Of a stretch of 64,000 nt of DNA, positions 1,549-59,850 are shown piece after piece. A model generated the notes under the pieces. That model saw nothing but the letters and a program-made list of their open reading frames with translations. It made no database searches and was not told the origin of the DNA. Source of the stretch: Massalongia carnosa (taxonomy: Eukaryota); the NCBI GenBank assembly GCA_965645245.1, contig OZ287080.1, positions 1,736,001 to 1,800,000 of the forward strand, read 5' to 3'. A program made the translations under genes and the position numbers. Every line of letters starts with the position of its first letter. Positions within the stretch are counted from its first letter, which is position 1.

Positions 1549-2691
1549 ATGTCTTCAGCAGAAGAGAACCTCTCCGAGCTGGATAAGCGTATTCGATTCA
1601 TTCAGGAACGTCTTCAGGCAGACCCTCAGCAATTCCTGAGTCAAATGGACAACCTAGAAGCCGAAGTAAACCAACTTCGCAACAATGCCAATACCCCTTC
1701 TATTTCCGAGCCCATACCTATCTCAAATCCACCCCCCCCTACCTTGGATCCGCAAATCATGGCCATGATGCAGCTGCTCCTGGCGTCAAAAAACTCCCTC
1801 ATCCGCTCCGAAAAGCTCCCGGACATCACGGAGTATGAGGGCGAAGAAGTCAAGCTGGATGCGTGGGAGCAGTCCCTGATTCAAAGAATGCATGTCAACA
1901 ATGATCGATACCCGTTCGATCAAGCCAAAATTGCCTACGCCGAAAGCCGACTCACCATAGGCAAAAAGGCTCATAACCTAATGAATGCGTACAGGGTCGA
2001 TGGCCTTTGCATACTCACCTCATTTGCTGAATGGCGATCAGCCCTCCGCCGCGCATGCGGAAATCCCTACGAGCAGGAGGATGCTCGCAAATACCTTCGC
2101 GATATCCTCAAACAGGGAAGTAGTAGCTTCGAGGAGTACTACAACCTTTTTGCGCAGAAAAAAGACCGGTCCAAGATGGAAGATGCCAGCCTGATCGATG
2201 CCATGAAGGCAAATGTGAATTATTCAACCCAGACCGCAGCCCTAATGTATAGGGTCCCCGGAACCCAAAGGCAACCAACCACCTTCGACGAGCACGTCAC
2301 CATGTGGTTGGAGACAGATCGTGGCCTTCGGCAGATCCGCCACATTGCCCCAAAGGCGAACACCACCACTATCACCCCGACACCGAAAAAGCCAAACCCG
2401 TTATCAGCACTTCCCCCGACAGTCGCTCCCGCTGCCAAAGCACCTGTCGCTTCTCCCGCCTCCCCTGCGCTGCTCATTGGCGACCCCATGGACCTAAGCT
2501 CTGCCATGGCAGCGGTGAAAGGCCAATCGCTCAAAACCGAGGGGGTCCGCAAAATCTGCGAAGACTGGAAGTTGTGTTTCTACTGCAAATTGCAGCATCC
2601 AGGGAAGTCAGCAACTGACTGTCCCAACAAGCGAACCAACCTTCGGAGCATGGAGCTCGAAGCCCCTGATATTGATCAGGGAAAAGCCTAG
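1549..2691 (+). CDS. gag: Gag of element A
   Basis: 380-aa ORF with a retrotransposon capsid-like region ('LKQGSSSFEEYYNLF'), 'GDPMDLS' and zinc knuckle 'CFYCKLQHPGKSATDC'. Confidence 0.92.
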   Translation: MSSAEENLSELDKRIRFIQERLQADPQQFLSQMDNLEAEVNQLRNNANTPSISEPIPISNPPPPTLDPQIMAMMQLLLASKNSLIRSEKLPDITEYEGEEVKLDAWEQSLIQRMHVNNDRYPFDQAKIAYAESRLTIGKKAHNLMNAYRVDGLCILTSFAEWRSALRRACGNPYEQEDARKYLRDILKQGSSSFEEYYNLFAQKKDRSKMEDASLIDAMKANVNYSTQTAALMYRVPGTQRQPTTFDEHVTMWLETDRGLRQIRHIAPKANTTTITPTPKKPNPLSALPPTVAPAAKAPVASPASPALLIGDPMDLSSAMAAVKGQSLKTEGVRKICEDWKLCFYCKLQHPGKSATDCPNKRTNLRSMELEAPDIDQGKA

Positions 2692-2719
2692 TCTCTGCAA
2701 ATCGTCGCGTGCAGGGACT
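2679..2719 (+). promoter_or_regulatory. -1 ribosomal frameshift signal (slippery G GGA AAA plus stem-loop)
   Basis: Heptamer GGGAAAA at 2679-2685 in the gag frame. Stem AGTCTCTGCA/TGCAGGGACT at 2690-2719. pol is in the -1 frame and is open across this site. Confidence 0.8.
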
Positions 2720-7958: not shown

Positions 7959-10022
7959 ATGAGTCTTCGTCCTCCAGAAGATGGACAATCCTTCGAATCA
8001 CTGGATGACCTTGTTATTCGTGTTAATGAGCATGCCGCCCCACAAGGATATGCCATCGTGTTAAGCCGGACCAAGAAATCGAAACTCGGAATAAGAAGAA
8101 AGGCCTGGTTGATTTGTGATCGAGGAGGAAAGCCCCAGGGACAGGAAAGATGTCATACCAGCAGTAGATGCATAGAATGTCCGTTTCTTCTGACTGCCAA
8201 GCGAATGGAAGAAGATGGAGGTGCCTGGATTCTGGAGGTGGTAAATGAGGAACATAATCATTCGTCCAGTCTCGCTGGCGCCCATCCGGTTCATAGAAGA
8301 ATGGCGATGACAGCAGAAGTGAAAAGTGTGATATCTCGTCAATTAACAGTGCAAGTAGCACCTTCCAAAGTTTAATCTAGTCTTCGCATTCCTGATCCCA
8401 CTTTGGGATCAGTCAACACGGACGATCCGGCCGATCCTCAGATTATTAATCCTCTTTTCAAACCTCGAGATATCTATAATCACAAAGCTCAGATGCGTCG
8501 CGACATTCTGGGACCGCTTACCCCCGTGCAGGCATTGATTCAAGAGTTGGATCGAGGGCATTGGACATACCACATGCAGAAAGATGAGCTGAATCGCATC
8601 ACTCATCTCTTCTTCGTCAGAGAAAGCTCCCAAACTCTTCTGAAGACAAACTATGAGGTGTTGGTAATGGACTGCACCTACAAGACAAATCGATATCGCA
8701 TGCCTCTTCTTATTGTAAGTGGTCAGACCAGTCTGCATACAAATTTCTATGTGGCTTTCTGTTTCATGGCATCAGAAACCACCGCCGATTACACGTGGGT
8801 ATTGTCTCATCTGAAGGCATTGTATTTGCAACTCGAACTTCCTGATCCAGTCGTTATCGTCACTGATATGGAACGTGCTTTGATGTCCGCTATTGATCAG
8901 ACTTTTCCGAACACTAATCATCTTCTTTGCATTTGGCACATCAACAACAACATCGTAGCCAGTTGTAAGAAAAGCTTTGATACCAAAGAAGCATGGGATG
9001 CCTTCTTTGCTGAATGGAAATCCATCGTATACGCCACTACCGAACCGGAATTCTGGCAACTATGGGGGCGGTTTTGTGGTACGATTCCTGGAAATTGCGT
9101 GGAGTATATCACCTCAACTTATTTGTCTTTTCGGCATCATTTCGTCAAATGCTACACTAACAAGATGTTGCATTTTGATACCACGACGACATCTCGAGGT
9201 GAAGGCGGTCATGCAGTTTTGAAACGTCAGCTGGGATCATCGACCGGAGATCTGAAGACGGTGGTGGATGGCATCAACTTACTATTGATCAATGAACTTC
9301 ACAACTATCTTATTACATTCAACGAAGCCAGAGACCGACTTCCCATGGATCTTCAAAAACCAGTGTTTCAGCGATTAACCGGATTCGTCACCCCTCATGC
9401 CCTACGAAAGATGCTTCTTCAGTACAATCTTGTGGTCGGACGACCCATAGTATTGGGGCCTTGCACCCATGCTTACACCATCACAACTGGACTTCCATGT
9501 AGTCATAAAATCCAGGAAAGGTTGTATGAGGAAGGAAGTCTGTTGATTGAAGACGTTCATCCACATTGGAGGTAGGTTATTGGATACATTCAGAGTTTCC
9601 CTGCGATTACTAACTATTGTAGGTTTCAGAGAACCATGCCTGCCAATACGAGGAATGACTTACTATTGGTGCAAGAACCGGAGATGGCAAGAACTCGAGG
9701 ACGTCCTCAAGGAGCTGAGAATCTCAACAGAAGGACCATAGCATTTGAGGCCTCTACCAATCGAGTACCTTCTCAATTCGAACGTGTCGAGATGGAGACA
9801 GCTGGGATAAACGAGATAGTCGATCCAGAGGTGGAACGTGTTATACAAAGAGCCGATCCAGCACCCGGAAAACGAGGAAGGCCACGAGGTCGACCCCGAG
9901 GTATAGGAAAAGGGGCGGGACAAGGTGGAAGAAAGAAACAACCGAAATCAGCTGGCATGGGGGGACAATCAGAATTAGCTGGCACGGGGGGACAATCAGA
10001 ATTAGCTGGCACGGGGGGATAA
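7959..10022 (+). pseudogene. MULE transposase with an in-frame stop
   Basis: FAR1/WRKY-like N-terminus (CDRGG...CPF...HNH), then TAA at 8373-8375, continuing in the same frame with MDCTYKTNRY, VTDME, LCIWH, EGGH and TGLPCSH. Intron 9572-9622. AT-hook-like RGRP tail. Confidence 0.88.
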
Positions 10023-20022: not shown

Positions 20023-23000
20023 CTAGCCTGATTCTTGATTATCATCTATTTTTGTTAGATCATCTGGTGGTTTGGGTTTCTGTGGATGTTCTCGATGATA
20101 TTGGAGGATTTTGTCCTTTGAATTCTTGAAGTCGGTCCATGGTTGCCAGTAAGGGTTCGCGTTCCATTCATCCCAATTTCCAATGAAGGTTGCTTTCTAC
20201 TGCACGCCGAACTTTCTTGTTTCGCGGCAGTCTATTATTTCGAGGACTTCCCATTCTTCGTGGGCCTCCTCTTCGTCGTTTTCGGTTATGGCTATGGGCG
20301 GTCCAGGCGGTACGACTTGTCCTGGGAATGGGTTGGAAGGTGCGAGATGTAGCTTCCACGGATGAAAGATGGGGGTAAGCCCGACGTTCTTTAACTGATC
20401 CGGGATCTCTAATTCGTATGCTTTATTGTCAATAATTCTTATTATCTTCCATGGTCCTATGTTCTTGAAGCTTAATGATCTGCTGGGTCTTTCTGAAGCA
20501 AAGTGCTTGGCGTTTACATAAACCATGTCCCCGATTTTGTATTCCGGGTGAGGTTGACGGCCTTTGTTTGCGTGTCGTGTTTGTTCTTCCTGAGCCCAGG
20601 CTAATTGATCTCGGAGCCAGGTTCGCATGGCTTCTTGCCGTTCTATGATTTTGTCAGCATGCAGTATCTCTACTTTTCCTTTTCCTTCGTATGTGCCTGG
20701 TGGTTCGATGCCACAGCGTGGGTGGAAGCCATGGTCTGCGAAGAATGGAGTCATTCCCGTTGATACATTTACATGATTGTTGGCGGCAAACTCTGCGTCT
20801 GAAAGATAATCCACCCAGTTGTCTTGTGTGTAATTGACGTATGCTCGGAGATAATTTTTCATTACCTTGTTGGCGTTTTCGGTTTGACCGTCTGTTTCGG
20901 GATGATGTGCAGATGAGAATTTGATTTTCACCCCGTATCTTTCGCAAACTCTTTTCCATAAGTGAGCGGTTAGTTGACTACCGCGATCGTTTACTGTTGA
21001 TATAGGAAATCCGTAAGAGGAGAATAATCTCCTGGACATCGCATCCATCAGTTCATCAGTAGAGAGAGAGGTTAGTGGTTCATATAATCGTCTTTTCGTT
21101 AAACGATCTACTATCACTAATATGTGTTGATAGACTCTGTTTCGTCTTCGGCATTCTGGAAGGAATTCGACGAAGTCCAATGACACGTCCATCCATTTTC
21201 TATTTGGAATAGGAAGAGGATTCAGCAGGCCTTGCTTCTTGTCGTTGTATGCTTTTGATCTTCGGCATACGGAGCAGTTAACTGCGTATCTCTTGCAGTG
21301 ATCCTTCATTTCAAACCAGAAATAATTTTCTCTCATTATCTGATACATACTTTTGTATCCCGGATGGCCCTGTAATGGTGGTTCGTGATGCTTTTTCAGT
21401 AAATGTAGCTGCAATGGCTCGTAATCTGGTACGTATAGTCTTCCTTTGACATACAGCTTGTCGTTTTCTAGTTTGAGGTCCCCCATTGCTAGCTTTATTC
21501 CTCTTTTTATGAGGTTCAATGGGAGTTTCCTCAGTTCCTTCCTCTTTGCTGCTACTATGTCTTGAACTGTTTCGTCTTTTTCGTAAGCTTCTTCAATTAG
21601 TTCCTCCAAAGTCTTCGTTACTGAGCTCTCGGTCTCGTCGATCACTGATGTAGGTTCTGCGTTGGGTTCCTCCGATCCTGTTGTGTCTTCCTCGATGAAT
21701 TCGCTTTGATTATCTTGATTGTTATCGTCGTCGTCGTCGTCCGCTGTGTTTGCGCAGAACACGACTGCTAACGCTTTTCGTACATCGTCATCTAGTTGAT
21801 GCTCTTGAAGCAGCGTTTGAAACTGATGTTGCTCTCTGATATCTTCGAATCCTTTCGGGAGATCTTGAGAGCGTCGAGTAAGCGTATCCGGTTTCTCTCC
21901 TTGCTTTCCCGGTCGATACATAATCTTGAAATTAAATTCGGAAAGAAATTCCGCCCATCTGGCTTGCCTTCTGTTTAGCTGCTTCGTGGTCATGAAGTGC
22001 TCTAAATTCTTGTGATCGGTGTATACTTTAACAGGTTTATCAGGAGCAGCACTTGCAACCTCGGGGCGCCAGACTTCGAAGCTCTTTACAATAGCGAGGA
22101 GTTCCTTATCATAAATCATATAGTTACACTCGGCAGGGGTCATCTTCTTGGAAAAATAGGCTACCGGTTTCAGTACTCCATCGTGCATTTGAGAGAGTAC
22201 TCCGGCGCTGACGAAATCTGAAGAGTCAGTCTCGACCCATGTTTCCAGGGCCGGATCGTAATGTGCTAAGACGGGAGCGGTGGTGAACGCAATTTTTAAA
22301 TCTTCGAAGGCCTTTTGACAATCTTCAGACCATACGAACGAATTATACTTGGTTCGTTTCTTTCCTGATTTCGTCGTTATTTGTTCGCCCTTTGTTAATT
22401 CTGTTAACGATCTCGTCCGTTGCGAAAATCTCGATATAAATCGTCGATAAAAATTCGCAAAGCCTAAAAATGCTTGCACGTCTTTTACGGAGCCTGGGGT
22501 CTCCCATTTCAGAATCGCCTCGATTTTCTCCGAGTCCATCTTTATTCCATCGGTGGTAACTATTAATCCAAGATACTTTACTTCCGTCACAGAGAATTCG
22601 CATTTGTCTATGTCCACTTGCAGTCCTTTCTCCTTCAATCGAGTTAGAACTTTTAACACTTGTTCGGAATGCTCTTCTTCCTTTTCGCTATAAATTAGGA
22701 CATCGTCCAAGTACGCAGTGCAGAAGACGTCTAAGTATTCTCTGACTGTATCGTTAATGAAGCTCTGAAAGGTTCCCGGAGCGTTGCAGAGACCGAATGG
22801 CATTACCAGATATTCGAACTGACCATATCTGGTATTGAAAGCCGTTAGCCATTCGTGGCCTTCCTTCATTCTCATACGATTGAAAGCGGTAATCACATCC
22901 AGTTTTGTGAACTTCTTGGCTTGTGATAGTTTTCCCAACGTTTCATTTATCAACGGTATTGGGTACCTGTTCTTGATCGTGATGGAGTTTAAGGCTCTAT

Positions 23001-23970
23001 AATCTACGCAAAATCTTAAACCACCCCCTGGTTTTCTAACTAAAAGAACGGGGGCTGCTGCGCTTGACGAACTTGGACGGATGAAGCCTTTTCCCAGATG
23101 CTCGTCGATGTATTTTTTAACCGCTTCCAATTCTTGTTCTGACATGGGTTTATAGTTCCTTACGTACGGAGCTTCTTTTCCCGCTTCGAGATTTATCTGA
23201 TGATCCTCCTTCCGGTGTTCAGGCAGTTCATCCGCCTTGTGCTTCATGAAAACATCTATTACGCTGTGATAAGCTGCTGGGACTCTCTCCAACAACTCCT
23301 CTCGGGTGTATTCCGGTTTTCCCTTCATGAACTTGTCGTAATCTCCTGATGTCACTGCTCCGGTGGTAGTTGCGCAGAAGGCCTTCTTTGTTTCTCGAGG
23401 AATCCATAGATAGCCGTCGTGATCCTTCTTTCTGGCCATTCGAAAGAAGTGTTTTGCGTTGACTGGAAGAACTTCGATGTCTTCCTTAGGCTCGATCCTA
23501 TTCTTAACCTTGCTTCCCACAGCGAATTCGGTGCAAGTTATCCCTCGTGTAAGACATCCTTTTTCAAGACAATTTGATGAGTTGAACTTCATCGTTCTCT
23601 CTTTCCAATTGATCATTGGGTTGTGCGTTTGCAGCCATCCATCCCCTAAAATGACTGCATACGCTTCTAGTTTTGCCAAATAACATAAGACTTGCTCTTC
23701 GTGATCTCCGATTTTCACGTCGATCAAGGCGGCCTTCGAGAGGAGCTGTACTACCTCTCCATTTCCCAAAGTAAGTTTCACCTTCTCATCCAATTTGAAG
23801 GTGTTCAATTTGTGTTTACGCACAAAGGATTCGTCAATGAGTTCAGCTTCACTTCCATTATCGATAATTAAACGGGTTTTAATTCCAGCTATGCTAGTTT
23901 TAAAAACTAAATGCTTGCCCTCGATTTTCTTTTCAGTATCGCGGACAGCACAAGTAGAGACCCTAATCAT
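20023..23970 (-). CDS. pol: Pol of element B (PR-RT-RH-IN-chromodomain); nonsense codon in the chromodomain at 20197-20199
   Basis: IIDNGS, YLDDVLIYS, ETDSSD, NDRGSQ, ETDGQTE and GPW motifs. After 'KFGVQ*' the frame continues as 'KATFIGNWDEWNANPYWQPW' to a stop at 20023. Confidence 0.93.
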
Positions 23971-24044
23971 TTTCGTTTCAGTGTCACCGTTCCCATTAAC
24001 AACCTCCTTGTTTGTAAGCCCTTGATCGCGATTTCGATCAAGGA

Positions 24045-25691
24045 CTAGGCTTTTCCCGCCTCAGATTCCGCTCCCGAATCTGTTTCTACTGTTCTCATGG
24101 TGCTCAAATTCTTGTCCCTGTATTGAGGACAAATGGTATCGTTTCCTCGATGTCCTGATCCCCTGCATGCCCAGCATCGGCGTTGACGGGAGAGGGACTC
24201 GCGCTCGTCGTCCTTCAGCTTCTTTGGGTTTGAGTCTGGATCATACCAGGTGCCTACCCAACCGGCCGGTTTGAATATCGTTGGCATCAGTTTCGCATTC
24301 GGCCGATCATCAGATTTCTTGGAGCTGGTTTGATTGATGGAGGATGAGGCGGACTTTCCGCCGGAGGACTGGGTTGAGGATTGTCCGCTGGAGAAGTTGC
24401 TTCGTTGGCTGGAATTCTTCGTTGCGGCTGGTTTATCGGGACGAGGAAAGTGGTGCGCCACATCTTTGCGGCGGTCTTCGATTCTTCGTGCTTCGTCAAG
24501 TAAAGGGCGGAAATCAGTAAAGACTGAACCCATAAGAGAGTTGGAGATGCTAGGCTTTAACGTCACGAGGAACTTCTCAATTCGCTCGTCAACGGGAGTT
24601 TTGGCTTTCTGCCATAGCTTGAAGATTCGGTGATAATACTCGCTGACGCTTTCGCCCCCTTTCATGGTGACGGTGAGGAGTTCTTTCTTGGCGTCGCGAC
24701 TCTGGAGGTGAATGCCCATATAGTGCTCTATCTCTTCGAATAAAGCGTCGGCCGATAGTGAGTCTCCCATATCCACTATCCAAGAGTGCATAGCCCCGAA
24801 GATCGGCGCTTCCATTTGAGACAGCGCGTAACCGACCTTTTCGTTCTCATCGGCGTAGAGGGGTGCGTCTGTCTTCAGTTTATTGCGGACGGAGTACGCC
24901 CAAGGACTATACTCCTCCGAGTCCTCACCTTTAAGTGGCTTGCTAGGGTTTATACCACGGGGTCGCCAATTCTGGGGGTTGGTGTTGGTGCTTCGGGTAG
25001 TAACGGTATCTTCTCGTTGATGACGTGGTGTTTCCCGTGTTTCCGCTAACTGGCGGACCAGGGAGTCTATGTCTTTCTGTAATCTCTCTTTTGCTATAGT
25101 CATTGCCTTTAATTCGATATCTCTATGCGATAGTTCTTCTTGCGCGAGAAGGGCCTCTCGTTCGGCATCGTCTTTTTCCGTGATGAGACGTTCATGTACT
25201 TGTTTGTAACGTCTGTTGATCTTTTTGACCTCGCCAAGCTTCTCCAGGTCGCCCTGCAAGGAGATGTATTTGTTGAATAGGGTCTTGTCGTATTCGAGCG
25301 CTCTCGCGAGGAAGTCATACCATCGGGGTCCTTCTTTCTCGTCTCGCAAGATGCTCTGCAATTCCTTCAAATTGTGTGCTGCAACGTGGGACGGATGTTC
25401 CGCGGCTTCCTTCTCGTAATATGGATGATCGGAGACATCGATCTTCTGAAAAAACTTCTTTTCTTTTTCACGTCCTGCTCTTGGGGTTTTTTCCCACGTC
25501 CCCTCCGTGGTTTCTTTAATCTGTTCGTTCTGAAGTAATTCGGAGTCTTCAAACGTTCCCGGCATGCTGCTATCCGAGCGAGACGAATGATGGGAGACGG
25601 AACGAGCACGGGTGTTAAATGCTGGGCCGGTCTGGGCCTCTGCGGGAGGGGCTACGGCCTTTCTCGCCGTCATGGGCGTTTTTGAGCTCAT
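24045..25691 (-). CDS. gag: Gag of element B
   Basis: 548-aa ORF with a coiled coil, 'MKGGESVSEYYHRI' and zinc knuckle CWACRGSGHRGNDTIC. Ends at the GGGAAAAGCCTAG frameshift site. Confidence 0.9.
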   Translation of the reverse strand: MSSKTPMTARKAVAPPAEAQTGPAFNTRARSVSHHSSRSDSSMPGTFEDSELLQNEQIKETTEGTWEKTPRAGREKEKKFFQKIDVSDHPYYEKEAAEHPSHVAAHNLKELQSILRDEKEGPRWYDFLARALEYDKTLFNKYISLQGDLEKLGEVKKINRRYKQVHERLITEKDDAEREALLAQEELSHRDIELKAMTIAKERLQKDIDSLVRQLAETRETPRHQREDTVTTRSTNTNPQNWRPRGINPSKPLKGEDSEEYSPWAYSVRNKLKTDAPLYADENEKVGYALSQMEAPIFGAMHSWIVDMGDSLSADALFEEIEHYMGIHLQSRDAKKELLTVTMKGGESVSEYYHRIFKLWQKAKTPVDERIEKFLVTLKPSISNSLMGSVFTDFRPLLDEARRIEDRRKDVAHHFPRPDKPAATKNSSQRSNFSSGQSSTQSSGGKSASSSINQTSSKKSDDRPNAKLMPTIFKPAGWVGTWYDPDSNPKKLKDDERESLSRQRRCWACRGSGHRGNDTICPQYRDKNLSTMRTVETDSGAESEAGKA

Positions 25692-30183: not shown

Positions 30184-32789
30184 GGGAACGGATAACAGGA
30201 CACCACTTTGGTTAGATAAACACCACCTCCGGTTAGGTAAACACCGCTAGCCCAGGTAGGGTAGATTCCTCGGCCCCGCCCGCCTCTTTCCCTTTTAGGT
30301 CTAGCGGTTGAAACTCCCACATTCTACCTGCACCTCATCCTTGCACTCATATTTCACATTTGATCTGCAGGCACCCTGCCGCCGCCACGTCGTCATGCCG
30401 CTTCGACCTCCCGAAGACACTAGAAGACCTGTTGCTTAGAGTCAATGAGCATGCCGCCCCCGAAGGCTACGCCGTGGTGCTTCTTCGAACCAAGAAAACC
30501 AAGCAGGGAGTGAGAAATAAAGCTTGGTTAAAATGCGACCGAGGTGGAAAAGTCAGAGAACCGCAGGGTCAGGATCGTCGGCACACCAGCAGTCGACTAA
30601 TTGCTTGTCCATTTGCCCTGACAGCCAAAATGGACGACGATGTGTGGTTTTTGGAGGTGGTAAATGGGACACACAATCCTCCGTCCAGTCTTGCTGGCTC
30701 TCATCCTGCCTAGAGAAAAATCGCTCTGACCGGTGTAAAGGATGACGTTACCAGACAGTTAACAGTACAAACGTCGGCGTCAAAGGTTTTGTCTAGTCTG
30801 CGTGTTCCCGATGTGGATGCAGATCTCAGTCCTCATGATCCCAATGCCGAGATCATTGTGAATCCGATGTTTAAATCTCGGGACATCTACAACTTAAAGG
30901 CGCAGATGAGACGTGATGTCTTGGGACCATTGACTCCTATTCAGGCATTGATTCGTGAGTTTGACGAAAAGGATTGGGTGTACAACTTTCAACAAGACAT
31001 TCATCAGCAGATTACGCATCTCTTCTTCATCAAGGGCAGTTCCCAAACTCTTCTGATAGATAATCATGAAGTTCTCATTATGGATTGCACGTACAAGACC
31101 AATCGATACAAAATGCTTCTTCTCGTCATCAGCGGACAAACCGCGCTACATACTACCTTTTATGTCGCCTTTTGCTTTCTGATCACGGAGACAGCAGAGG
31201 ACTACATCTGGGCTTCACAGCAATTGAAGGAGGTGTATTCTCGATTGGAACTTCCTGATTCAATTATTCTCGTGTCCGACATGGAGAAAGGATTAATGTT
31301 GGCATCTTCCATAGTCTTTCCAAATAGCAATCATTTGCTATGCATCTGGCACATCAATCAGAATGTGTTGAAAAAGTGCAAAAAATCTTTCGACAATGAG
31401 GAATGGAAGATCTTTTTGTCAGATTGGAAATCAGTGATCTATGCAGCAACCGAGCCTCAATTTTGGAAGCTATGGGAGCAGTTTTCTGCTACCTATATGA
31501 CTTCTCATGAAGATTGTATTCGATATTTGAAGTCCACATACATTGATAATCATCGCGATCGCTTCGTGGCATGCTACACCAACAAGGTGCTGCATTTTGA
31601 GACAACGGTAACGTCGCGAGGGGAAGGCGCACATGCAGTATTAAAACGTCAATTAGGATCATCGACCGGAGATTTGAAGCTGGTAGTTGACGGCATTAAT
31701 CTGCTACTAACAAATCAGTATCATGATCATCTGATTGCTTTTGAAGAAGCCAGAACACGTTTTCCACTTCATCTTCGCAAAGTTATCTTTCAGCAACTGA
31801 GAGCATTTATCAGTCCCTATGCCCTGAAAAAGATTCTACACCAATACGAGTTATTAACAGGAAGACCGACTGTTATTCCAGCTTGTACCAACGTCTTCAC
31901 TACCATCACCGGCTTGCCTTGTAGTCATCTGATTCAGCAACGATTATTCGAGAATGAAGGAAGTCTGAAATTGGAAGATGTGCACCCGCATTGGAAGTAG
32001 GTTATTGTCATCTGATCGATGGTCAGCGATCAGTTACTAACAACAGTTCAAGGTTGGAAAAGCGCGCCCCTCCGATTGCTTTGATTAATCCTCTTCTTCA
32101 AGTGAGGGAACCGGAGATAGTCCGACCTCGTGGTCGCCCTCAGGGAGCGGAAAACAGACGAGCGGAGGCATTTGACAATTCCACTCATCGATTACCATCT
32201 CAATTCGAACGGGTTGAAATGGAAACAGCTGATGCAATAGCTCCGGAGGTGGAACGAGCTATTCATCGAGCCAATACTACACCAGGCAGGGTAGGACGTC
32301 GGGGGCTAGGGCGAGGGCGAGGACGAGGGGGAGGGAGAGGAGGGGGAGGGGGATTGGTGAAAGAGCTGAGACAAACACAAGGACTGGCCGAGCTAGGGCT
32401 AGGGCTAGTCGAGGCAGAGCTGGTCGAGGAAGGGGAGACGGGATTGGCGGGGATGCAGCAGATGAAATAGGCAGGGATGCAGCGAATGCGGCTCCAATCA
32501 ACTGATTTGCATTACTAAGCTTCAAATAAAGGGTGCGATTCATGAAGACAGTGCCAATCGACAAATCCAATGTCTAGTAATCGATGGTTGACAGCTTTAC
32601 AAAGCAAGAAGTGAAATATTAGTGAATTGAATTTTTTCTTAAGGTGTCAATGTTGGGATGTGGACTGCTAGACCTAAAATAGGAAGAAGGCGGGCGGGGC
32701 CGAGGAATCTACCCTACCTGGGCTAGCGGTGTTTAGCTAACCGGAGGTGGTGTTTATCTAACCAAAGTGGTGTCCTGTTATCCGTTCCC
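30184..32789 (+). mobile_element. Mutator-like (MULE) DNA transposon 2
   Basis: TIRs GGGAACGGATAACAGGACACCACTTTGGTTAG... at both ends. 8-bp TSD AAAATTTA at 30176-30183 and 32790-32797. Confidence 0.93.
30395..32470 (+). pseudogene. MULE transposase (paralog of 7959-10022) with a frameshift and a stop at 30711-30713
   Basis: Same motifs (MDCTYKTNRY, LCIWH, TGLPCSH, EDVHPHW), same intron position, RG-rich tail. Confidence 0.88.
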
Positions 32790-39779: not shown

Positions 39780-40760
39780 TCAAAAGGAAACCAGACTTTT
39801 ATCAAACCAGTCTCTAAATACCGTATTCGCCCAATGTCGAAGTATCTTTAGTGCGGCAAGAACTTTGTAGATGCCGAGGATCGTGTCCGTAGCTCCAATG
39901 TGAACTCTACCATATAGAATCTTAATAGTCAGCCAATGGTGAGAAGCAAAGAAGTGAGAAACGTATACCGTCTTGCTGTCTCGTTGCACTGCCAGAATTG
40001 CGAATCAATCGTGTTCTTTGATATATATTAACGGTAGCACCATCATTTCACAAGTCACGCCGGATCGCAGAATGATTAATTGCAGTCGCTTAAAATGCGC
40101 CACAACCCATACTGATAACTGAGTTGCAGCCTCGGATTCGCTCCCTCCTATCTTCGTCTCAATGCTGATAGCAATTGGTCGGAATCGAACTGGTTCGAAC
40201 GAGGTATGATTGATGTAATGAGAATTGACCAGTTCCAGTCGCAAAGTTTCACGCATTCGCTTGAACATAGGCTCGGCTGAGTCAGGTTCGAGGCATATGT
40301 CATAGTCCACCATCTTCCCCTGCAACGAAGCCCCACTTAAACTCGATGGATTGAAGGCTCGAGGATGGATCCTTGCCGTAGTACTATTTATTGGTTAGAT
40401 GCGCTATCTCAAATCTCGGAACACAAGAGGTATGTGATGTAAGGAGGGCAAGCGCATGATATGAGGAAGCATACATGTTCTGGAAAGCGACTGCCGTCTG
40501 ACCTTCCAGAGCCAACTCAATGACGCGAGAATAAACCTGTTCGTTCCACCCCGGCTCGGCATCTTGTAGGTCTCTGCACATCTGCGCCTTCCTCAAAATC
40601 CGTTTCACTTGTATCAGTTCAGCATGGCGATCTAGGGTGAAGGTGAGAGCTCCATACGAGGTGTACCTTGTCACAGCTCGTATGGAGGTAGCTAAGCGAG
40701 GCCGACGATTACGTCATGCTTTGGGGAGCTCACGAAGACTTTCTGGGAAGAAAACTTCAT
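39780..40760 (-). pseudogene. Fungal PD-(D/E)XK nuclease-like gene remnant
   Basis: 'KMVDY...INHTSF.P....PIAISIETK...QLSVW..AH...LPLI....HD*' matches the fungal PD-(D/E)XK nuclease-like family. TGA at 40005-40007 where Trp is expected. 5' part missing. Confidence 0.65.
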
Positions 40761-44540: not shown

Positions 44541-45103
44541 ATCGGTGGTAGAATAAAGCCTTCGCAAGACGGTTGGAGTTGGAGTAAAACAACAAAATTC
44601 GAGGGGGTCCACCCCGCCACACAAGATAAAGTCGCTTCCATTTCTCTCCAATCGCACTAATGGGGGTATAGAACCTGTACTGAACGAAAATGGCAAGGAT
44701 TATCGCTAGACTGGACATTTTCAGACCTTGGGCACTCTTACTGACTGGCGGCGACTCGGCAACAGCGTCTCGGATGTAGATCATAGCCAAAATGAGCGTC
44801 TGAGCCTTATGGATTCCAACATGAACGTGTTGAGAGGTTTTGGCCGAGGCCACAACGCCAAGACGATCTTTCCCCTTTCGTCCTAGAGTATAATGCTCCT
44901 GAGTGGGATGCTGCGATGCACCCCATTTGCCGTTCACAGCAGTAAGACTTTCGTAGCTAAGGTATATTTCTAATTGGATTACCATATGAGTGGGATGGTC
45001 ATAACGGACTTCATCTACTTTCCATCGCGCTACTCCAGAGTACTCGAATTTATCTTCTTCTAACCTCACTCTCAAAGTGTGACTTTGTAGAATCATTATA
45101 AAT

Positions 45104-46856
45104 ATGGATCCGACAGGACTGAGCCTCGGTGTTATATCAGCCGTGATCCAAACGTATACAGCTGTGACGGCGGCATACGATTTATACCTTGAAGTCAAAG
45201 ACTTTCCTTCAACATTCCAAGAGCTGCGCATGGGCTTGCTGATTGAACGCTATAAATTGGAATTGTGGGCAAATCACGTCCTATCCGACGCTGAGCAAGA
45301 CCGGGTAAAAAGGTCTTCGCAGGACTGGGGCCTTTGGAAGCTCTTTGAGTCGATTTTTAACAAGATCCTAGAAGCCTTTCAAGAACACAACGAGATAATG
45401 GAGAATTACGGGCAACATACCGGGTTGCCTAAGAAAGATGGACTTTCAGGTAATGCGTCAGATTTGACTTTTTGATGCCAGACATCACTCTAAAATCTGT
45501 GAAGATTGGGAGTTTCTTGAAAACCTGTCCCTTTCCGTCAAATCTCCACCGAAGAATAAAATCACCCGCATTTCGCGAACCATCAAGTTCGTCCTCCGAG
45601 ATAAACGAAAGATGGAGCAGCTCATCAAACAGCTAAATTATTGGAATGACAGTCTGGACAAAATGACTTCGAAACTGGACCAAGAGTCATCGCGTCGGAA
45701 ACTCAGGACGTACTTCTCGACTGATGACGCCACGCAGCTCCAATACCTGGAAGCTGCTGCAGCGCTATTCAATCATCAAGATCTAGGACGGATGGCTAGC
45801 GTACGAACTTTAATCGACCAAGGATATCGCGGCGAGAAGTCGCAAGACCTAGAAGCAAGTCTGAATCCAGCCCCGGAATATCGTCTCATGATGGAGCACT
45901 TGCAATGGCAATGCATACCTTACCAGACGGATCAGGTTCGTGCTATGGCAAAGCTTGGAGACGAAAACATTATCGTTGACTGGCGAGGCTGCCAAGATAA
46001 TACCTGGCGGCGGGAGAACCCTTCTGCATTCCGGCGCCGGACCGAGAACCTGACAAAGATCCTGAATTCCGACCTTAGGCCCCTGGGCATTTCCGTTCTC
46101 CACTGCGTAGGCTATCTTGACCAAAACATAAATATTACCGGCTACGCTTTCCGTTTACCGCCAGATGTTCCACCCGGCCAGAATCCCATGACTCTCCATC
46201 AACTTCTGATGCGCGCCAAGTCAGCCAACGATATTCCAGATCTAGGCGAGCGTTTTGACTTGGCCAAAGCTCTGACCTCGACCGTTTTTGAAATCCATAA
46301 CCTTGGCTGGGTGCATAAGAACATACAACCCAAAAACATCCTGTTCTGGCCGAAACCCAACACCACAGATGAACCCGATTTGCGGAAACCGTATTTAATG
46401 GGTTTTGACATCTCTCGCCCCAGCCAGCCAGGCGAAGTGTCCGAGAAGCCTCCTTCTCGCCCGGAGGACGATTTATACCGACATCCTGAATACATAGGCT
46501 TAAATCCTCAATCCTTCCAGCCGTCGTTCGATTTGTACAGCTTAGGTGTAATCCTGTACGAAATCGGCTTGTGGCGAAATGTTGCCCAGCAAAAGCACTC
46601 GAGCAGCTTACGGCCATCTCTTCACACACAGAAATCAGATCCACAATTCGTTGAGAAGATGGTCCAAAGTGGATCAATCCTGGAGTTGAAACGATACACC
46701 GGTTTACATTTTCAGAACGCTGTTGCGGCTTGCTTAAGCAAAGACTTTGATGCCTTTTGGGCGGAGCCACAGGGAAATCGCCAGCAGAAGTTGCAAGCGT
46801 ATTTGGGCCAGCTTCAAGCAGAGGTTGTTGATGCAGTTGCTGTTTGTAATGCATAA
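45104..46856 (+). CDS. HeLo (prion-inhibition and propagation) domain + pseudokinase protein (~565 aa; intron 45450-45504)
   Basis: HeLo-type N-terminus 'MDPTGLSLGVISAV...LLIERYKLELW' and 'IKFVLRDKRKMEQLIKQLNYWNDSL'. Kinase-like C-lobe 'HKNIQPKNILF', 'LMGFDISR', 'LYRHPEY' and 'DLYSLGVILYEIGLW'. Confidence 0.87.
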
Positions 46857-47935: not shown

Positions 47936-50540
47936 CTATAGCATCATCGAATGCCTCAAGGATAGGCCCATATAGCTTCTCCGGATCCGGTGGGGTTCCA
48001 GTAAACAACCCATCCTTATATGGGAAGAGGATACCCCGTATCTCTTGACATTAAGGCTTAAGGTGATCGAATATTGAAGCAAATTCCTCCAAAATGTCCT
48101 CAAACCCGTCAACACCCATATCGCCTCGTTTACTTCGAGCGATATCATCATAATCGCCCGTGTACCACTTCGTTAAAATGCTTTTCTTGGGTCTATCCAC
48201 CAACTTGCACCCAAATTCCCTTTCCCACGCACGACGAGCGCAGATCCATAGAAGCACATAAAAGAACGACTCGAGGTCATGCCGATAGGTATGAGCGACT
48301 TTGCGTAGCACTTCAATCGCCATAAACTCCAATTGTGCCTGTCTGATGCCGTGCGCCGGTTCGCCCGCCACCGACTATTTTCGCAAGATCTGCATCGATC
48401 AGCATCCCCGTGAAGCCATTAGCCTGCTTTGGATTTGTTATTATGATGTTGTTTTCCGAGATGTCTCTGTGCAGTATAGATCCTTCCAAGTACAAGGATC
48501 TATGCGCCTTGATCGCAACACGAAGTGTCATTAACAGCTCTAGGATCGAGTAAAAATCCTTGATTGCTCGTCCGGCCGGCGCGATAATTAAGCAGCCGAA
48601 TACGCGATTGTCGAATGATCTGTCGCTTGGGTCACAGAAACTCGAGGATTGTATATTTTCAAGGGCTTGTGACGATTCGTGTTCCTGAGATAGGTCTGAT
48701 CTTTGACTGTTGGATCTCGACCGCTTCGAAGACTTTTCTTCGCTTTCCTCACACTTTCGTTTCCTTGTACCGGCATTTCCCGGGGATTGCGACACTTCAT
48801 ACTCCTTGCGTGACGTCGACTTTTGACTGGTGGATGCGGGCTCCTTAAGCAACTTTCCTTCGTGGTCCACAGACTTTCGGCCCTTGTCTGTGTAATCTTC
48901 AGGGCCTCTGTAGCATTGTGTTCTTGATGTAGCCTTGACCTTTGAGTGTTGGATCTTGACCTTTTGGAAGGTTTTGCTTCGTTATCTGGAGATTTTCGTT
49001 TCTTCGAGCTCCTCGAAGAGATCTGCACGATGCTCAAACGTTGGAACGGCCCAGAAGACTGAGAAAGTGGCTGCTGTGATTGGGATTGCGAGAAAGATGC
49101 CGAGGTATTTGGCGAGGTATTTCGGAATCGGTGAGGAGCAGGAAAGGTTAATCCGCTACATATTTCCTCGATGCTAGTTATGTGTCGGTAGCCCAGCAAT
49201 CTTGCAACTCCTTTAACACCTTTCTGATGTGCCAACCTCAGGAGATCTGCCTCCGGTGGCCGCTTGGCGGATGTCCATGAGAACTTGGCTACATCTTCCA
49301 GATCCTTGGTGCGATGGCAGGTTGTTCCCCGACAGACAATGGCTCGTTGCACGACAAGCGGAGCACGCTCCAGCTGAAATCTCTTTTCCTTTCCAGTAGC
49401 ATCTTCGGTAATGGTTATAAATAGATCTCCACCATTCCGCTCAACGAATGTGTCCAAGCCCAGCTCTTCGTCGCTCATCATAGCGTACCCTGCAACGGCT
49501 CGGATAAATTGCTCGGGTTCCTCGTGAATATCGAATTCACCAGAGCTGTAAGGGTCAGATCGATCGAACACCCACAGCTCTATGGTGGTTCCGTGGAGGA
49601 AAAATCCATGGATGAAGCGGCGGGTAGGCTGGGCGGTAAACACATCACGCATGTACCTGCCGAGTTGGATGAGCAAAGTTTTAAAGTCGTCCTTTGATTG
49701 CTTGTGCTCAGCAATGACCCGGACGTCTTTCCACTTGTGTGTCGTTCCTACCTTGTCGCTCTTCCGTTTGATGAAGAGATCGAGCTGACGTCGTGCCTCA
49801 GCACCAGTAAGATCCTTGGTACTTCTGCTTGTGTAGTAGACACCTTGCGCGTCGGATAGAAACTCTTCCTGAAAATGAACTAACCATTCCCTACAGCATT
49901 CTGCACTGGCGGATCAGGGAAGTCAGTCCACCGGCCGTCGACATATCGGTCCTTCATGGCATTGTATATTTCTTTGCTCCGCTCAGTCCACTGCTTGCCC
50001 TCGAAATACTTTGAGAAGAATCCGCTAACATTCCTGTATGTACATCTCTTAATTTCGTGGAAAATCGGTCCATTCAACAACTCTTTGGTCTGCTCATCAC
50101 CTTGCTGCGGGCAGAGGAATGCGTGATGGGCGTGCCGTCGAACGAGACAGGAACGCTTGCAGGAGGGCTTATCCGAGAAAGAGTGATTACGAGATCGAAG
50201 ACAGCGTTCCAGATTTCGATGTCCGATGCCTTCTTAATAACTAGCCGTGATAGCGCACGGTAGTGTTCGTAATGGAAGTCACCCTTCTGGACGCGTTCGC
50301 GAACCCTTAGTAAGTCAGAAGTGACGTTTCAATTTCCAGTCTTCGAAGGGAGATAAAGAGTCACGTCTGGACCCATCAAAGCGCTCAGAAGCCTTGACGT
50401 TGCCTTTTGAAGTCCTTGGTCGGACCTGTCAACAGCTCCATCGTAAGAGATCACACCTGGCTTATAGACCGCTCCGCCTTCCGAAGCGCATCTTGTAGAT
50501 GATCTAGGGAGTCATCCAAAGGATGCTCCAGGATGATGGT
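47936..50540 (-). pseudogene. FunK1 / fungal-type protein kinase, multiply frameshifted
   Basis: 'QLGRYMRDVFTAQPTRRFIHGF...LWVFDRS', 'AIVCRGTTC', 'HRDISENNI', 'LIDADLA' and 'FMAIEVL...HTYRHDLESFFYV' spread over several frames. Confidence 0.85.
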
Positions 50541-53842: not shown

Positions 53843-56490
53843 ACGATGGACCCAGGCCCCTCCGCTGCAGGCCCGCTGTCGCAGATCCGGAGACGGCGGC
53901 GCCTCTTTCTTGGCCTCCTCCTGAGGCTTACGTTGATGTCGACGCCGTCAAGCGTGAGTCTCAGGCCTATGCCACCCACGGAAACAACGAGGCCGCCATG
54001 GCCGCCACCATGAGGCGCGTCCGCGGGGATGCGGGAGGAGGATCGGAGGGCCAACACCCTTAAGACGTACCGCAAGTGCTGGCATCTGTGGGAGGTGACT
54101 ACGATAGGTATGCACTGCAAATTTGGGCCTACGCTAACATCCTACAGAAGTGGTGCCGACGTCGCAATTTTCCTGACGGCGTCCTTGTGTGGGAGCGGAA
54201 GATGCTCTTCTTTCTCGAAGAGGTCCTCCTCCGCCTGCGCTTCGTCCTACGTCCCAAGCTCACAGGCGCAGCAGCGCAGGCCAGGCGGCGGGATCAGAAT
54301 CGCCAACGGCAGGCTTAGCGCCGCGCGTTGAAGAGGGGGAAGGGGAAGGCGATGGAGGCGGTGGAAGCCTCGCCAGCGGTAGAGGGAGAGGAGGTGGAGG
54401 AGGTGGAAAATTTCGAGGAAATCTCCGACGGCGAGGAGCTCGTTGAGACGGTGAGTCGCCCCCTGAACTCGAATTCAGGGATAGAATCATCTTTTTGTAG
54501 CTTACTGACTCGGCTTGCAGTAAGCCGACGACCCTTTATCCCGGCCCCTGGCGCCCGATAGCGTGGAATCGGGCTACGTCTCTGCCCTCCGCGCCCTCTT
54601 CGATGACCAGCATCTCGAAGAGAATTTGGTGGTGCCCCATCCCAAAGGGAAAGCCACCAAAGCCCTGATGACGCGCGCGCTTACGCATCGATTGGAGCGC
54701 TTTCAAGCGGGCCTCGTTCGAGGATCGCGCGATCCACGGCCTCACCGACGGCTACACGACTGAACAGGCCGCTCAATTGTCGGCAATGCTGCTCGCCGGG
54801 GCAAGGTTTGGGGGGAGGAGGGCGTGGCGGGCGGCGAGTGGCACCTCCTGCGAGACTCGCCTCGATTTCCTCCCAATGCATTCGATGATGCTGCGGGGGG
54901 AGTCAACGCGGAGGGCTGAGCTACCTGATCTCTGCGCCTACGACCTCCCTAACGAGGGGCCCGAATGCCTTGCGTTGATCCTTCGAATTGGCCAGGGCAA
55001 GAGCATTCCTCTGGCGGACGGGGGCAACTCGCGCCGCCAGCATTACCATGGTGCTTTGCGGAGCAGAGATGTCGTCCTCTGTCCTCTCGGCGCCCTCGCC
55101 CACTGGCTCGTCTTGCGCTGGGACCTCCTCCTGGAGAAGCGGCCGGACTTCCGGGATCGATCTTCGTGGTATTTCACGAAGGTCATCTCCGGGAGCCTGG
55201 CGCGATCTATGGAGGAGATCTCCGACAAAACACAGGCCCGATGGATTAAGCCGGCTTTGGATGCTGTCGGCGTCGACAGCTCCAAGACGGTCCACACCAT
55301 GCAGCAGTCCTCGTCACGGCTGGCCGACATGTTGGAGGTCCCCGCGGACCAAGTAAGTACTCTACGATTCATGGCCCCTTATACTTGCTAGCATTACCCT
55401 TATACCAACTACTACAGATCATGAGAGCAGGCGGATGGCCCTGCAGCGGCAGGTGTGGCCTTGGGTGGATGACGCTCTGGCAGCGTACAAAGGCGGTCTT
55501 TTCCTGATGTGGATAAGGCAGGGAAGAAGATTCTGCAGATGTTGCTGCGGCTGCGATGTCTTCCTGCAAGACGCGGCGCTTCTACAGTCTCAGTTTCCTG
55601 AGCTTTCGCTCTGGAGACAACAAGTCTTCAGAGATCCCCTTTGGCCTGCGTTCGTGGCGAAGATACGGGAGTTGGAGGCTGTAGAAAAGGAACCTTTGCA
55701 CGTGGCCATCCACGGCGTGCTGCCTCTTGTTGCTGACTCCGTTGATGGCGTCAGTAACAAGGTCAGCGGTGTTGCGATCAAGCAAGATCGCACGCTCAAC
55801 GCTGTGGAGAGGTTACTCTCCGGGCAGAGCCAGCTGACGACCACCTTGAGTGCGCTGTCGGTGGCAAATGCCCAGGAGATAGCTCGAATCCTGGGTCCGC
55901 AGCTCTCACAGTTGCAGGCTACGGTCTCGACGCTACCTCGATCCTTTCTGACGGTTCCTGTGGAGGCTGTTCGGAGGGACTGGCTGCTGGACGAGGCTTC
56001 TTGGCGAGGGTAGGCGACTGCTCTTGCGACGGCGGTGCATTCCGTTGGTGAAGAGCCTGCTGCGTCGGCGTCCTCGTACGTCGACGCAGTCGCTTCTCTC
56101 CTTCCTGCACCTTCTGTCGTCCTCACTTCCGTCCCCGGAGAGGCGTCTACGGTCTCTGCGCCCTGTGGCTCCCTCCCCCAAGAGGGGCCGCCTCAACATC
56201 CTCCTGGCTGCCCGGCGGAGCCTATTCTCGGCGGCGTGACCTCGGCGGAGGCGGTGTTGGAGGAATTCGCGGGGGGGACGTTGGTGGAGAGGGTCCGGCG
56301 TACGTCTCTCGACGAGTTGGACCGCCTCTTCGGGGCTAAGTGGAGGTGCACTCCTGCCCTGAGGCAGCGGTTCTACGTCAAGAGACGGATCCGTCGGTAC
56401 CTTCAGGGAAATGCGAATGAGCAGAGGAGGGATCCGTGGGATATTGCGCGGGAAGTTGACAGTTTGGGGCTCTCTGAACATCAGATCTAA
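53843..56490 (+). pseudogene. Crypton-type tyrosine recombinase (Ndc10-II-like + GCR1_C) relic
   Basis: 'NTLKTY...KWCRRRNFPDG..V.ERKMLFFL', 'LRGESTRRAELPDL', 'GALRSRDVVLCPLGALA.W...RW', 'PDF..RSSWY', 'KTVHT', 'VWPWVD', 'FLQDAA', and a GCR1_C-like end 'LDELDRLFGAKWR...RFYVKRR'. Introns, stops and frameshifts present; visibly GC-rich. Confidence 0.75.
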
Positions 56491-57236: not shown

Positions 57237-59850
57237 ATGATCGAGCTCTCTGTCAATGATATTCGCGTCATATCAAGTTATCCGATCGGTGGAGCGCTCG
57301 AATCTTTTCGACAGTTGTTTCACTCCACTTGCGACAAACTCGGCGTTGCCAACTCCTCAGAGAGTATCAAGAGAGTTGTCTCAAGCGAAGGTATTGTCTG
57401 ACCCCGACCGTTTGGATTGATTCTTGTTAACAGATGCAGATGGCAGGGGTCTAGCGTGTCGACTTATCTATGTAATCCAAGGTCAAGATGCGGCCTATCA
57501 ACTTCCCTCCAAACACGGGGGTAGAACTCTATTCGATGATCTTTGTGGTCTATGAGTTCAAATTGATTTCGATCAGTTGGATGTCAAGTCTGTCACCCCT
57601 GTCTTGAACTCTGTCATCAGAGAAGTAAAAGATGAAGAAATCTGGCTTGCTGTATACGCCCTAATCGCACAAACAAAGCCGACCCACCCACCAACTACTC
57701 CTTCACCTTCCGGCCCTAACTTCGCTTCAGCTTTCAAGAACACATCAAACTGTTTCAGCTCTGGTAGCTTTCAAAACACATCTGAGCCTGTTGAAATGAT
57801 GAGGAATGTGCTCAGGTGGGAGCTCCAGTCGAATCTTGAGCTCGACCATCCCGATTTCATAGCCACATACCTTGCTGAAATCCCCCAAGTCGACGATGCA
57901 GCAACTGCCGTCTTCAAGAAGTGTTGCGATGGAAAGGACCCCTTTTACACGATTGGCTACGGATGGCGTGGTTGGGAGGACGGTGATGAAAAAGGCGTCC
58001 AGCGGTCGCTTGAGGGATGCGTCAGCAAATTTATGAAGTTTCTTGAGGAGGCCAGCATCGAGCCACCAAGCCAACGCCGGTTCGTGCCATCACCCAATAC
58101 CCCCGTCCCGGGAGCTGTGAAACGGAAGCCTGACCTGTGTGTCGCCACATTTGCTGCAGAAAGCATCGGTGTGCCCGCCAAGCCAAACAAACAGATAGCT
58201 TCTTGGCGTCAGGTACTTGTTGCCATTGAACTCAAATCTTCTGGACAGGACGGTTTGGAGAAGACATGGTCAGATGTCATGAAATACGCACGAGAAATCT
58301 TCAGACACCAAGATTCCCGCCGGTTTGTCCTTGGACTCACCCTATGTGGATCCACCATGCGGCTTTGGGAATTTGATCGACTGGGCGCCACGACTTCAGT
58401 GGCATTTGATATCCATAAAAATGGCCCTTTCTTTGTGAAGACCTTACTCAGCTTCCTCTGGATGAACGATGGACAGTTGGGCTTCGATCCGGACTTGATG
58501 GAGGTAGACGGTCAACGATTCGTCAAGATTAATAGAGACGGCAAAGAAGAGCGACTGATCATCACCGAAACGCTGAGAGCTCATGCAGCGTGCATAGCCG
58601 GCCGAGCGACGACTTGCTGGAAGGCATACCATGAGGGAGATGACTCCAAGAAGCCACTTGTAGTCAAAGACTCTTGGCAATACGTCAATCGACCAGAGGA
58701 AGGCGAGCTTATTCGCAAAGCCAATGCCGCAGGTGCCACTAACATCTCTCAATACTACCACCATGTAACGGTCTTGTTCAACGAAAAAGAAGACTTTATT
58801 CGCTCAAATGTTCGAAATGGCATGTCAACTGAAGCTGGTAGCAACCCGTTCACACAACCCGGTTTCTTTTCACCTGAAACTACCACATCCAGCAAAGCTT
58901 CCGGTTTCCCTTTAGTGGTTAAATCTAGTCAAGGTTCCGCTTCTCCGGTAATGGCTAGATCCAGCCGAGCGCCTGAACTAACCAAGACTCAATGTGTGAA
59001 TTCGCTTGGCTCAGCAAGCCAACAAAGCCAGACGTCCCGAAAGAGGCCATTAAGTCAGATTGAGGGACTAGAACCAGCACGAAAGCGCTCACGATCAATC
59101 ATGACTGCTAGGGAGGGCGACAATCGATCGACGAACGACAAAGTCTGTCGTCGCATCATAACTCAGAGTCCTGGTAAACCGCTTCGTGAGGCGAACTGTC
59201 CTGCAGCGCTAATCACAGGGCTACTTGGAGGCATCAAAGGTGAGCCAATCAATTGATTTGTTCATATGTGTAGCTAACGAGTGCAGGGCACGAGTCTCTC
59301 TACCAGGCTGATATACTCCACCGCGATATATCACTTGGAAATATCCTCCTTAAGGACGATGAAAGTGATGGGTTCCTGATCGACCTTGACCTTGCTGTGG
59401 ACATCACCCGGCTGGAGGCGGTCTGGAGCTCCGGGAATGACCGGCACCAAAGTCTTCATGGCCATCGGTGCCCTTGATGGCGATCCACATAGCTTCATGC
59501 ATGATCTCGAATCGTTCTTCTGGGTGCTTCTCTGGATCTGCATTCACTACACCGGGCCAGGTAAGGAACTTCATGACGTTGCCGACTTCAAAGACTGGAT
59601 TTACGAGTCTACCGCGAAACTTGCAAATTCGAAAAAGGGTCTAGTATCTGAAGAAAAAGATTTTGATGAGATGATGTCGGTCTCTGTTACAGGTTATTGT
59701 AAGGACTTGGTGCCCTGTGTTAAAGAGCTGTGGAAGATCATCTTTCCTGGAGGGAATCGGTGGAAAATAGAGGATCAGAGTCTTTATACCCAGATGAAGG
59801 CGGTGATTGAGAAGGCACGAGACAACCTTATCACGGAAGGGACAGTGTAA
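57237..59850 (+). pseudogene. FunK1 / fungal-type protein kinase (2 introns; TGA at 57553-57555, frameshift ~59421)
   Basis: 'RKPDL', 'YAREIFRHQDSRRFVLG..LWEFDRLG', 'IAGRATTCW', 'VVKDSWQY', 'HRDISLGNI', 'LIDLDLA' and 'TGTKVFMAI...HDLESFFWV'. Confidence 0.85.

Follow-up and report, generated by a model that had tools for sequence, protein, structure and literature searches.

In a window of 64,000 nucleotides from Massalongia carnosa (assembly GCA_965645245.1, contig OZ287080.1, positions 1,736,001 to 1,800,000 of the forward strand; coordinates below are those of this window), a gene encoding a HeLo-brace-pseudokinase protein (45104-46856, + strand, two exons, 565 amino acids) was found head-to-head with a gene for an intact, repeat-tailed kinase, the two lying 563 bp apart. 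On balance, we cautiously favour reading the pair as a two-gene regulated-cell-death module of the RIPK3/MLKL kind, in which a sensor kinase would phospho-activate a HeLo executioner. This reading is based on the architecture of the protein, its dead kinase motifs, a conserved Ser/Thr in its activation loop, the intact kinase beside it with its repeat tail, and a linkage that is both conserved and repeated. The protein architecture is already in print; the pairing with a kinase and the single candidate site were not found in the literature searched.

A preliminary description of this DNA had placed the pseudokinase at 45940..46600, a span that covers the pseudokinase portion only; the gene begins at 45104 with a HeLo domain. 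The 565-residue splice model is a prediction from sequence. PF14479 matched on both exons (41.1 and 30.9 bits, curated cut-off 23.2) and PF24476 (DUF7580) matched at 31.5 bits (curated cut-off 27), so that the two families that characterise the fungal HeLo-DUF7580 pseudokinases were both found above their cut-offs. The peak 19-residue hydropathy of exon 1 was 1.45, with similar values in orthologs. Structure models of exon 2 and of a full-length ortholog (predicted local distance difference test, pLDDT, 80.7 and 80.9, respectively) both showed a kinase fold that reaches up to the stop codon and is preceded by a bundle and brace helices, the brace comprising residues 173-232 in the ortholog model. 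No C-terminal prion-forming motif was found in the exon 2 model, in which the final predicted kinase helix stops 4 residues short of the stop codon and thus leaves no room for an amyloid tail; the earlier statement that such a motif is missing was thereby borne out. The ratio of non-synonymous to synonymous substitution (dN/dS) of the pseudokinase part was 0.09 and 0.14 in the two of four pairs with unsaturated dS, and this part is, on codon comparison, under purifying selection. The closest named homologs, with identity up to 65%, come from lichen-forming ascomycetes, and clustering at 50% identity divides the family, which belongs to the Ascomycota, into at least 3,731 groups.

All the degenerate motifs share one open frame on the + strand and, as judged by alignment, they are family traits and not chance. 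The preliminary description had noted a catalytic loop, HKNIQPKN, devoid of the catalytic Asp, and GFD in place of DFG; both were present and conserved across close homologs, with the catalytic-loop Lys and Asn each in 104/105 and the G, F and D of GFD in 106, 106 and 104 of 106. It had also remarked on IIVDW without a VAIK lysine as a sign of MLKL likeness, which held only in part. The motif is present, its beta3 Asp and Trp each occurring in 106/106 close homologs, and the residue after the Trp, inferred from the motif register to be the VAIK-Lys position, is Arg in this gene and in 95/106 of the homologs and Lys in none. MLKL, however, retains the VAIK Lys, and its loss is therefore a difference from MLKL. 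The same residue is Lys in 79/131 distant members. A glycine-rich loop is absent in the close-homolog subfamily (n=106), and invariant, non-canonical residues occupy the N-lobe surface of these proteins. Among 132 distant members the catalytic-loop Asn was present in 118 and Asp at the catalytic position in 11, a basic residue was kept at the HRD-Arg position (K109, R5), and Arg was found at GF+5, counted from the GF motif, in 115/131. In ordinary kinases, basic residues at these two positions hold the activation-loop phosphate.

The segment ISRPSQPGEVS contains three serines (starting at 46413, 46422 and 46440), and the preliminary description had proposed that the domain is a phospho-switch activated by a non-amyloid route. 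Comparative evidence supports such a switch as probable, although only one of the three serines qualifies. Ser or Thr occupied the first, second and third positions in 92/106, 0/106 and 103/106 close homologs, respectively. In a wider set of 146 distant representatives, 111 of which had the anchor motif and were counted, the third position (GF+13) was Ser or Thr in 104/111 (S45, T59) and never Asp or Glu, and the other offsets from 6 to 24 carried Ser or Thr in just 3-27 of the 111; the alignment of 132 distant members gave 123/128 at GF+13. These counts are not of independent events, since the representatives are related. An even exchange of Ser and Thr, with no acidic residue and in a loop that is otherwise variable, fits a phosphoacceptor. 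The second serine (GF+7) was rejected as a site, being private to this gene, and the first (GF+4) was judged structural, being S81/A30 under a search pattern that permitted Ser or Ala only and S84, A33 in the 132-member alignment.

The missing route of activation is probably provided by the adjoining kinase gene. Its product, in a gene model with two splice sites not uniquely fixed, has an intact kinase domain of the non-RD Ser/Thr type in which GQGASF, AFKR, NELVT, HGDVKGEN, TDFG and PWQAPE are all present, and its orthologs retain the beta3 Lys (39/39), the catalytic Asp (40/41) and DFG (53/53). A RHIM was not seen in this gene in a Pfam scan. A profile comparison aligned just 90 columns of the pseudokinase with the partner kinase, at 18% identity, and therefore lent no support to an origin by local duplication. 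The pseudokinase gene is flanked on one side by the kinase-ankyrin gene and on the other by a broken gene for a fungal-type kinase; a NOD-like receptor (NLR) with a matching amyloid motif was not among its neighbours.

The same pairing recurs throughout the genome of M. carnosa, in which 32 pseudokinase matches were located at 30 loci. Reading about 9 kb on either side at all 30 revealed a kinase domain at 19, arranged as eight head-to-head and six convergent pairs with a kinase of the ankyrin type and five head-to-head pairs with an RD-kinase-WD40 type that the first kinase profile had missed. At a further eight loci the convergent partner is present as its ankyrin end alone, at one locus an ankyrin remnant lies head-to-head with the pseudokinase, and at two there is nothing. 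The pseudokinases fall into about 11 subfamilies, 23-39% alike, eight of them with a kinase. When viewed from the kinase side, 11/13 loci from the first kinase-profile search adjoin a pseudokinase; by our own arithmetic the chance of an 18-kb flank holding one of 13 loci in 52 Mb is about 0.5%, a figure that repeat-rich clustering would raise. In the RD-kinase-WD40 copies (L091:1534-4961, also L074, L086, L093 and L097), which are head-to-head with a pseudokinase, the kinase is followed by 8-14 near-identical WD40 repeats whose number varies between copies and which resemble repeats of the HET-E type. A 13-copy family of convergent pseudokinase/kinase-ankyrin modules (L062-L085, L088-L089, L110-L111) lies mostly near contig ends, many copies bearing stops or transposon insertions. 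The window segment 38,000-50,900 itself has a 99% identical duplicate (G000:C15 about 107,000-120,500; L021, L022), in which indels shift the frame of the kinase gene as well as that of the pseudokinase gene; an assembly error was rejected as its explanation, the same indels being present in contigs of public runs. Two further arrangements were also recorded. In the C4 module the kinase-ankyrin gene stands head-to-head with a NACHT-ankyrin NLR (L072:2-2658), and elsewhere a kinase-ankyrin gene that also encodes three WW domains has no pseudokinase beside it (L114-L115, G000:C10 about 1,624,000).

Linkage was also conserved in other fungi. Among 38 same-assembly pairs, 33 had consecutive locus tags or accessions, two, on contigs of equal length, had one intervening tag and three were split between contigs (two of these short). 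The pairs are mostly from Teloschistales, with Lecanora, Psora and Puttea broadening the range; kinases tagged in Trichoglossum, Geoglossum, Physcia, Alectoria and a few others came with no pseudokinase tag to compare. At 35 metagenome loci the kinase was head-to-head in 22 (7 distinct at 93%), seven loci were too short upstream and six were without a kinase; where 2.3 kb or more of upstream sequence was available (28 loci), all six kinase-less loci carried a truncated or frameshifted pseudokinase. Trees of 21 pairs, from which 15 of the 22 metagenome loci had been dropped as near-duplicates, shared 15/18 splits between kinase and pseudokinase. Apart from the linked pairs, some family members have a kinase fused to the pseudokinase. 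An N-terminal kinase joined to the pseudokinase was found in 17/19 family representatives longer than 700 aa, and a motif screen flagged 19/146 as fusions, one of them a false match. The 18 true fusions have an intact catalytic loop and DFG, 17/18 carry Ser or Thr at GF+13, and their layout is a tandem active-type kinase, a helical linker and the pseudokinase (P0241, P0293, P0316 and relatives), which is reminiscent of plant tandem kinases. As they look like one clade, they count once. A search for longer family proteins found three, none with a Pfam kinase match. Two HeLo proteins of about 1,200 aa from Chaetomium and Humicola (P0458, P0459) are weakly similar to the pseudokinase.

With respect to MLKL, the likeness lies in the N-terminal bundle, the brace and a C-terminal pseudokinase that lacks the catalytic Asp and has GF[ED] for DFG, and HeLo and the MLKL four-helix bundle (4HB) are described as akin (PMC12881547, in its section 18). 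When a profile of 88 diverse members was compared with the PDB, the HET-s/HET-S HeLo domain came top (1.8e-22, residues 1-227), followed among kinase-fold chains by mouse MLKL (9.8e-09), LIMK1 (1.9e-08) and IRAK4 (1.9e-07); MLKL leads these chains, yet is tied with LIMK1. With the close-homolog profile, MLKL was absent from the best 60 of 85 PDB matches. Comparison of the fold with MLKL, as advised in the preliminary description, was run with Foldseek and VIA-align on the two models, with HeLo searched only as part of them. The kinase fold was confirmed, but MLKL was not favoured and the matches were generic kinase folds: for exon 2, CRAF came top (Z 18.4, root-mean-square deviation (rmsd) 4.2, 264 aligned) and MLKL ranked 38 of 50 (Z 16.2, rmsd 5.1, 243 aligned), and for the full-length ortholog MLKL ranked 41 of 50. 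In the profile alignment, mouse MLKL HRN/GFE stands over HKN/GFD, and GF+13 aligns gap-free to T349, as counted by hand with a numbering that assumes five tag residues in the chain. This residue, together with S345 and S347, is among the listed RIPK3 sites of mouse MLKL (PMC4851234, as far as consulted). The HeLo-pseudokinase would work as an MLKL analogue, whether by descent or by convergence. The activation loop of MLKL is phosphorylated by a separate kinase, for which the partner gene is the candidate counterpart here. In contrast to RIPK3, the fungal partner is a linked gene, has an ankyrin/Sel1 or WD40 tail with no RHIM seen, and is multiplied with its pseudokinase within the genome.

In the mechanism we envisage, the ankyrin/Sel1 tail of the kinase, or WD40 in other modules, would sense a non-self or danger cue, and the kinase would bind the pseudokinase and phosphorylate the GF+13 Ser. 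The phosphate could then dock on the retained Lys of HKN and the Arg at GF+5, whereupon the brace would free HeLo and the N-terminal hydrophobic helix would, in the manner of HET-S and MLKL, damage the membrane of the fungal cell itself.

A number of points weigh against this proposal. MLKL does not stand out in the fold searches, and the offsets of S345 and S347 carry Ser or Thr in only 21 and 7 of the 111 distant representatives, in contrast to mouse MLKL, whose death-promoting sites are pS345 and pS347 and not T349 according to the part of PMC4851234 consulted. The conserved Ser/Thr at GF+13 can be structural; the count of 104/111 excludes 35/146 representatives without the anchor motif; and among distant paralogs in the same genome, GF+13 was Ser in 4/8 subfamilies read, three others placing Ser or Thr one to three positions before it and two further subfamilies having no GF motif. 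The tag pairs are not independent, most being Teloschistales from related projects. The congruence of the trees was rejected as proof of protein co-evolution, since linkage and shared descent alone produce it, and shows co-inheritance only. Nor is linkage universal. Three Podospora HeLo-kinase-like genes (Pa_4_8870, Pa_6_8690 and Pa_7_7510; PMC3689799 Table 5) are without a kinase neighbour in the annotations of supplement file 3 of that paper, their flanks being patatin, zinc finger, AP-3 subunit, esterase, transcription factor and unknown genes. In favour of the proposal, however, two of the three are induced in incompatibility (PMC3689799 Table 5).

The fused proteins bear upon an alternative in which kinase and pseudokinase form a heterodimer, with the pseudokinase as an allosteric regulator, scaffold or decoy, the output being signalling rather than membrane rupture and the loop Ser/Thr being structural or merely tuning binding. 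JAK JH1/JH2 and the plant tandem kinases are precedents. This we consider unlikely, albeit worth serious attention: the fusion clade joins an intact kinase to the pseudokinase with no evident HeLo head, and seems from its consensus to be without the hydrophobic N-terminal helix; invariant, non-canonical residues lie on the N-lobe surface; and in plants the immune function of MLKL can be separated from cell death (10.1101/681015, in the part consulted). The lack of the helix and the plant finding also weigh against the main proposal. Full-length orthologs nevertheless keep HeLo with a conserved hydrophobic first helix, and the pattern of substitution at GF+13 is that expected of a phosphoacceptor. 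The broken copies raise a different prospect, namely that the polarity is reversed as in a toxin-antidote or guard pair, the kinase restraining the HeLo-pseudokinase, either through binding or through phosphorylation, so that death would ensue upon loss or inhibition of the kinase or with a wrong allele of it. In addition to the six of six kinase-less metagenome loci and the C15 duplicate frameshifted in both genes, 8/8 copies in the M. carnosa genome whose partner lacks its kinase end have a stop in HeLo, as against 1/5 of those with the kinase end. Relaxed selection, however, gives an equal pattern of broken orphans, the eight stopped copies may stem from one broken ancestor, and the Podospora genes stand alone as annotated; we regard reversed polarity as rather improbable. 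That the domain still works as an active, if atypical, kinase or as a sensor of nucleotides, and that the linkage reflects co-regulation only, is very improbable, for although distant members hold the beta3 Lys, the catalytic-loop Asn and occasionally Asp at the catalytic position, in the subfamily of this gene the catalytic Asp is replaced by Asn in 104/105 and the DFG Asp by Gly in 106/106, the beta3 position is occupied by Arg, and a glycine-rich loop is absent.

The features of the locus are collected in the table. Mobile-element and nuclease sequences occupy window positions 1549-7136, 20197-25691, 8403-9575, 30789-32000, 54777-55391 and 40005-40674, and comprise two long terminal repeat (LTR) retrotransposons in which long open frames persist, transposases of the MULE and DDE types, a domain resembling NDC10, and fragments of PD-(D/E)XK nucleases. 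Around the module the DNA is repeat-rich, and the likely contig end is about 100 kb away or less.

Table. Positions of the kinase/HeLo-pseudokinase pair, its motifs and nearby kinase genes in the window
Feature	Position	Strand	Basis
Partner gene: kinase, Sel1-like repeat, ankyrin repeats; 4 exons, about 1076 aa	40884..44540	-	Pfam, motifs
Divergent intergenic region, 563 bp, putative shared promoter	44541..45103	.	start codons 44540 (-), 45104 (+)
Exon 1: hydrophobic N-terminal helix and first half of HeLo	45104..45449	+	PF14479 E 2.3e-10; splice model
Intron, GT..AG, 55 bp	45450..45504	+	sole stop-free splice model among ranges tried
Exon 2: HeLo end, brace helices (about 45670-45840), pseudokinase (about 45870-46853)	45505..46856	+	PF14479, PF24476 DUF7580, weak PF00069
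Beta3 IIVDWR; Arg at inferred VAIK-Lys position	45969..45986	+	motif register, homolog alignments
Catalytic loop HKNIQPKN; Asn for catalytic Asp, Lys at HRD-Arg position	46314..46337	+	homolog alignments
GFD motif and activation loop	46401..46442 (GFD 46401-46409)	+	homolog alignments
Candidate phosphosite Ser at GF+13, residue 428 of 565-aa model	46440-46442	+	S/T conservation
Fungal-type kinase (PF17667) gene, broken over three frames	48051-49676	-	Pfam
Fungal-type kinase (PF17667) gene, single open 559-aa frame	57577-59256	+	Pfam

Proteins of this architecture (PF14479 with PF24476) have been described as fungal HeLo-kinase/pseudokinase proteins in PMC3689799 Table 5 and a figure legend of PMC12881547, passages that name no activating kinase, gene pair or phosphosite. 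Neither a pair nor a phosphosite was found in the open-access papers and preprint texts searched, nor in the parts consulted of PMC10197012, PMC5613156, PMC12258605 and 10.1101/2022.03.16.484565. The HET-S/NWD2 and HELLP amyloid modules and the fungal two-gene gasdermin-protease clusters likewise cluster sensor and executioner, with ankyrin or WD40 repeats on their sensors as on the kinase tails here (PMC12881547, in part), and HET-S shares the HeLo domain; in the present pair, however, a kinase takes the place of NACHT/NB-ARC, amyloid motif or protease. The plant MLKLs (AtMLKL1-3 and wheat Pm13) are HeLo-brace-pseudokinases too, and one loop phosphomimetic increases activity (10.1101/681015, in part), but in contrast to these the protein described here has no Ser-rich tail and does have a linked kinase partner. 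At Podospora het-V, an MLKL/HeLo gene reportedly has a methyltransferase gene next to it.

The locus offers a candidate kinase, a substrate and a single residue, and the question can thus be addressed by means of two genes and a single point mutant. Kinase-executioner specificity can likewise be tested, a single genome having 30 such loci. More tentatively, and short of what we would call probable, ascomycetes may possess immune modules that use neither NOD nor amyloid and form a large class not yet described, in which several unrelated repeat-tailed kinase types (ankyrin/Sel1, high-identity WD40 and fused) would each activate a linked MLKL-like executioner via one loop Ser/Thr matching a RIPK3 site of mouse MLKL. 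Were such linked kinase-executioner modules confirmed, kinase-triggered necroptosis would exist in fungi and may predate animals, and the pair in M. carnosa would represent a kinase-triggered cell-death switch in fungi.
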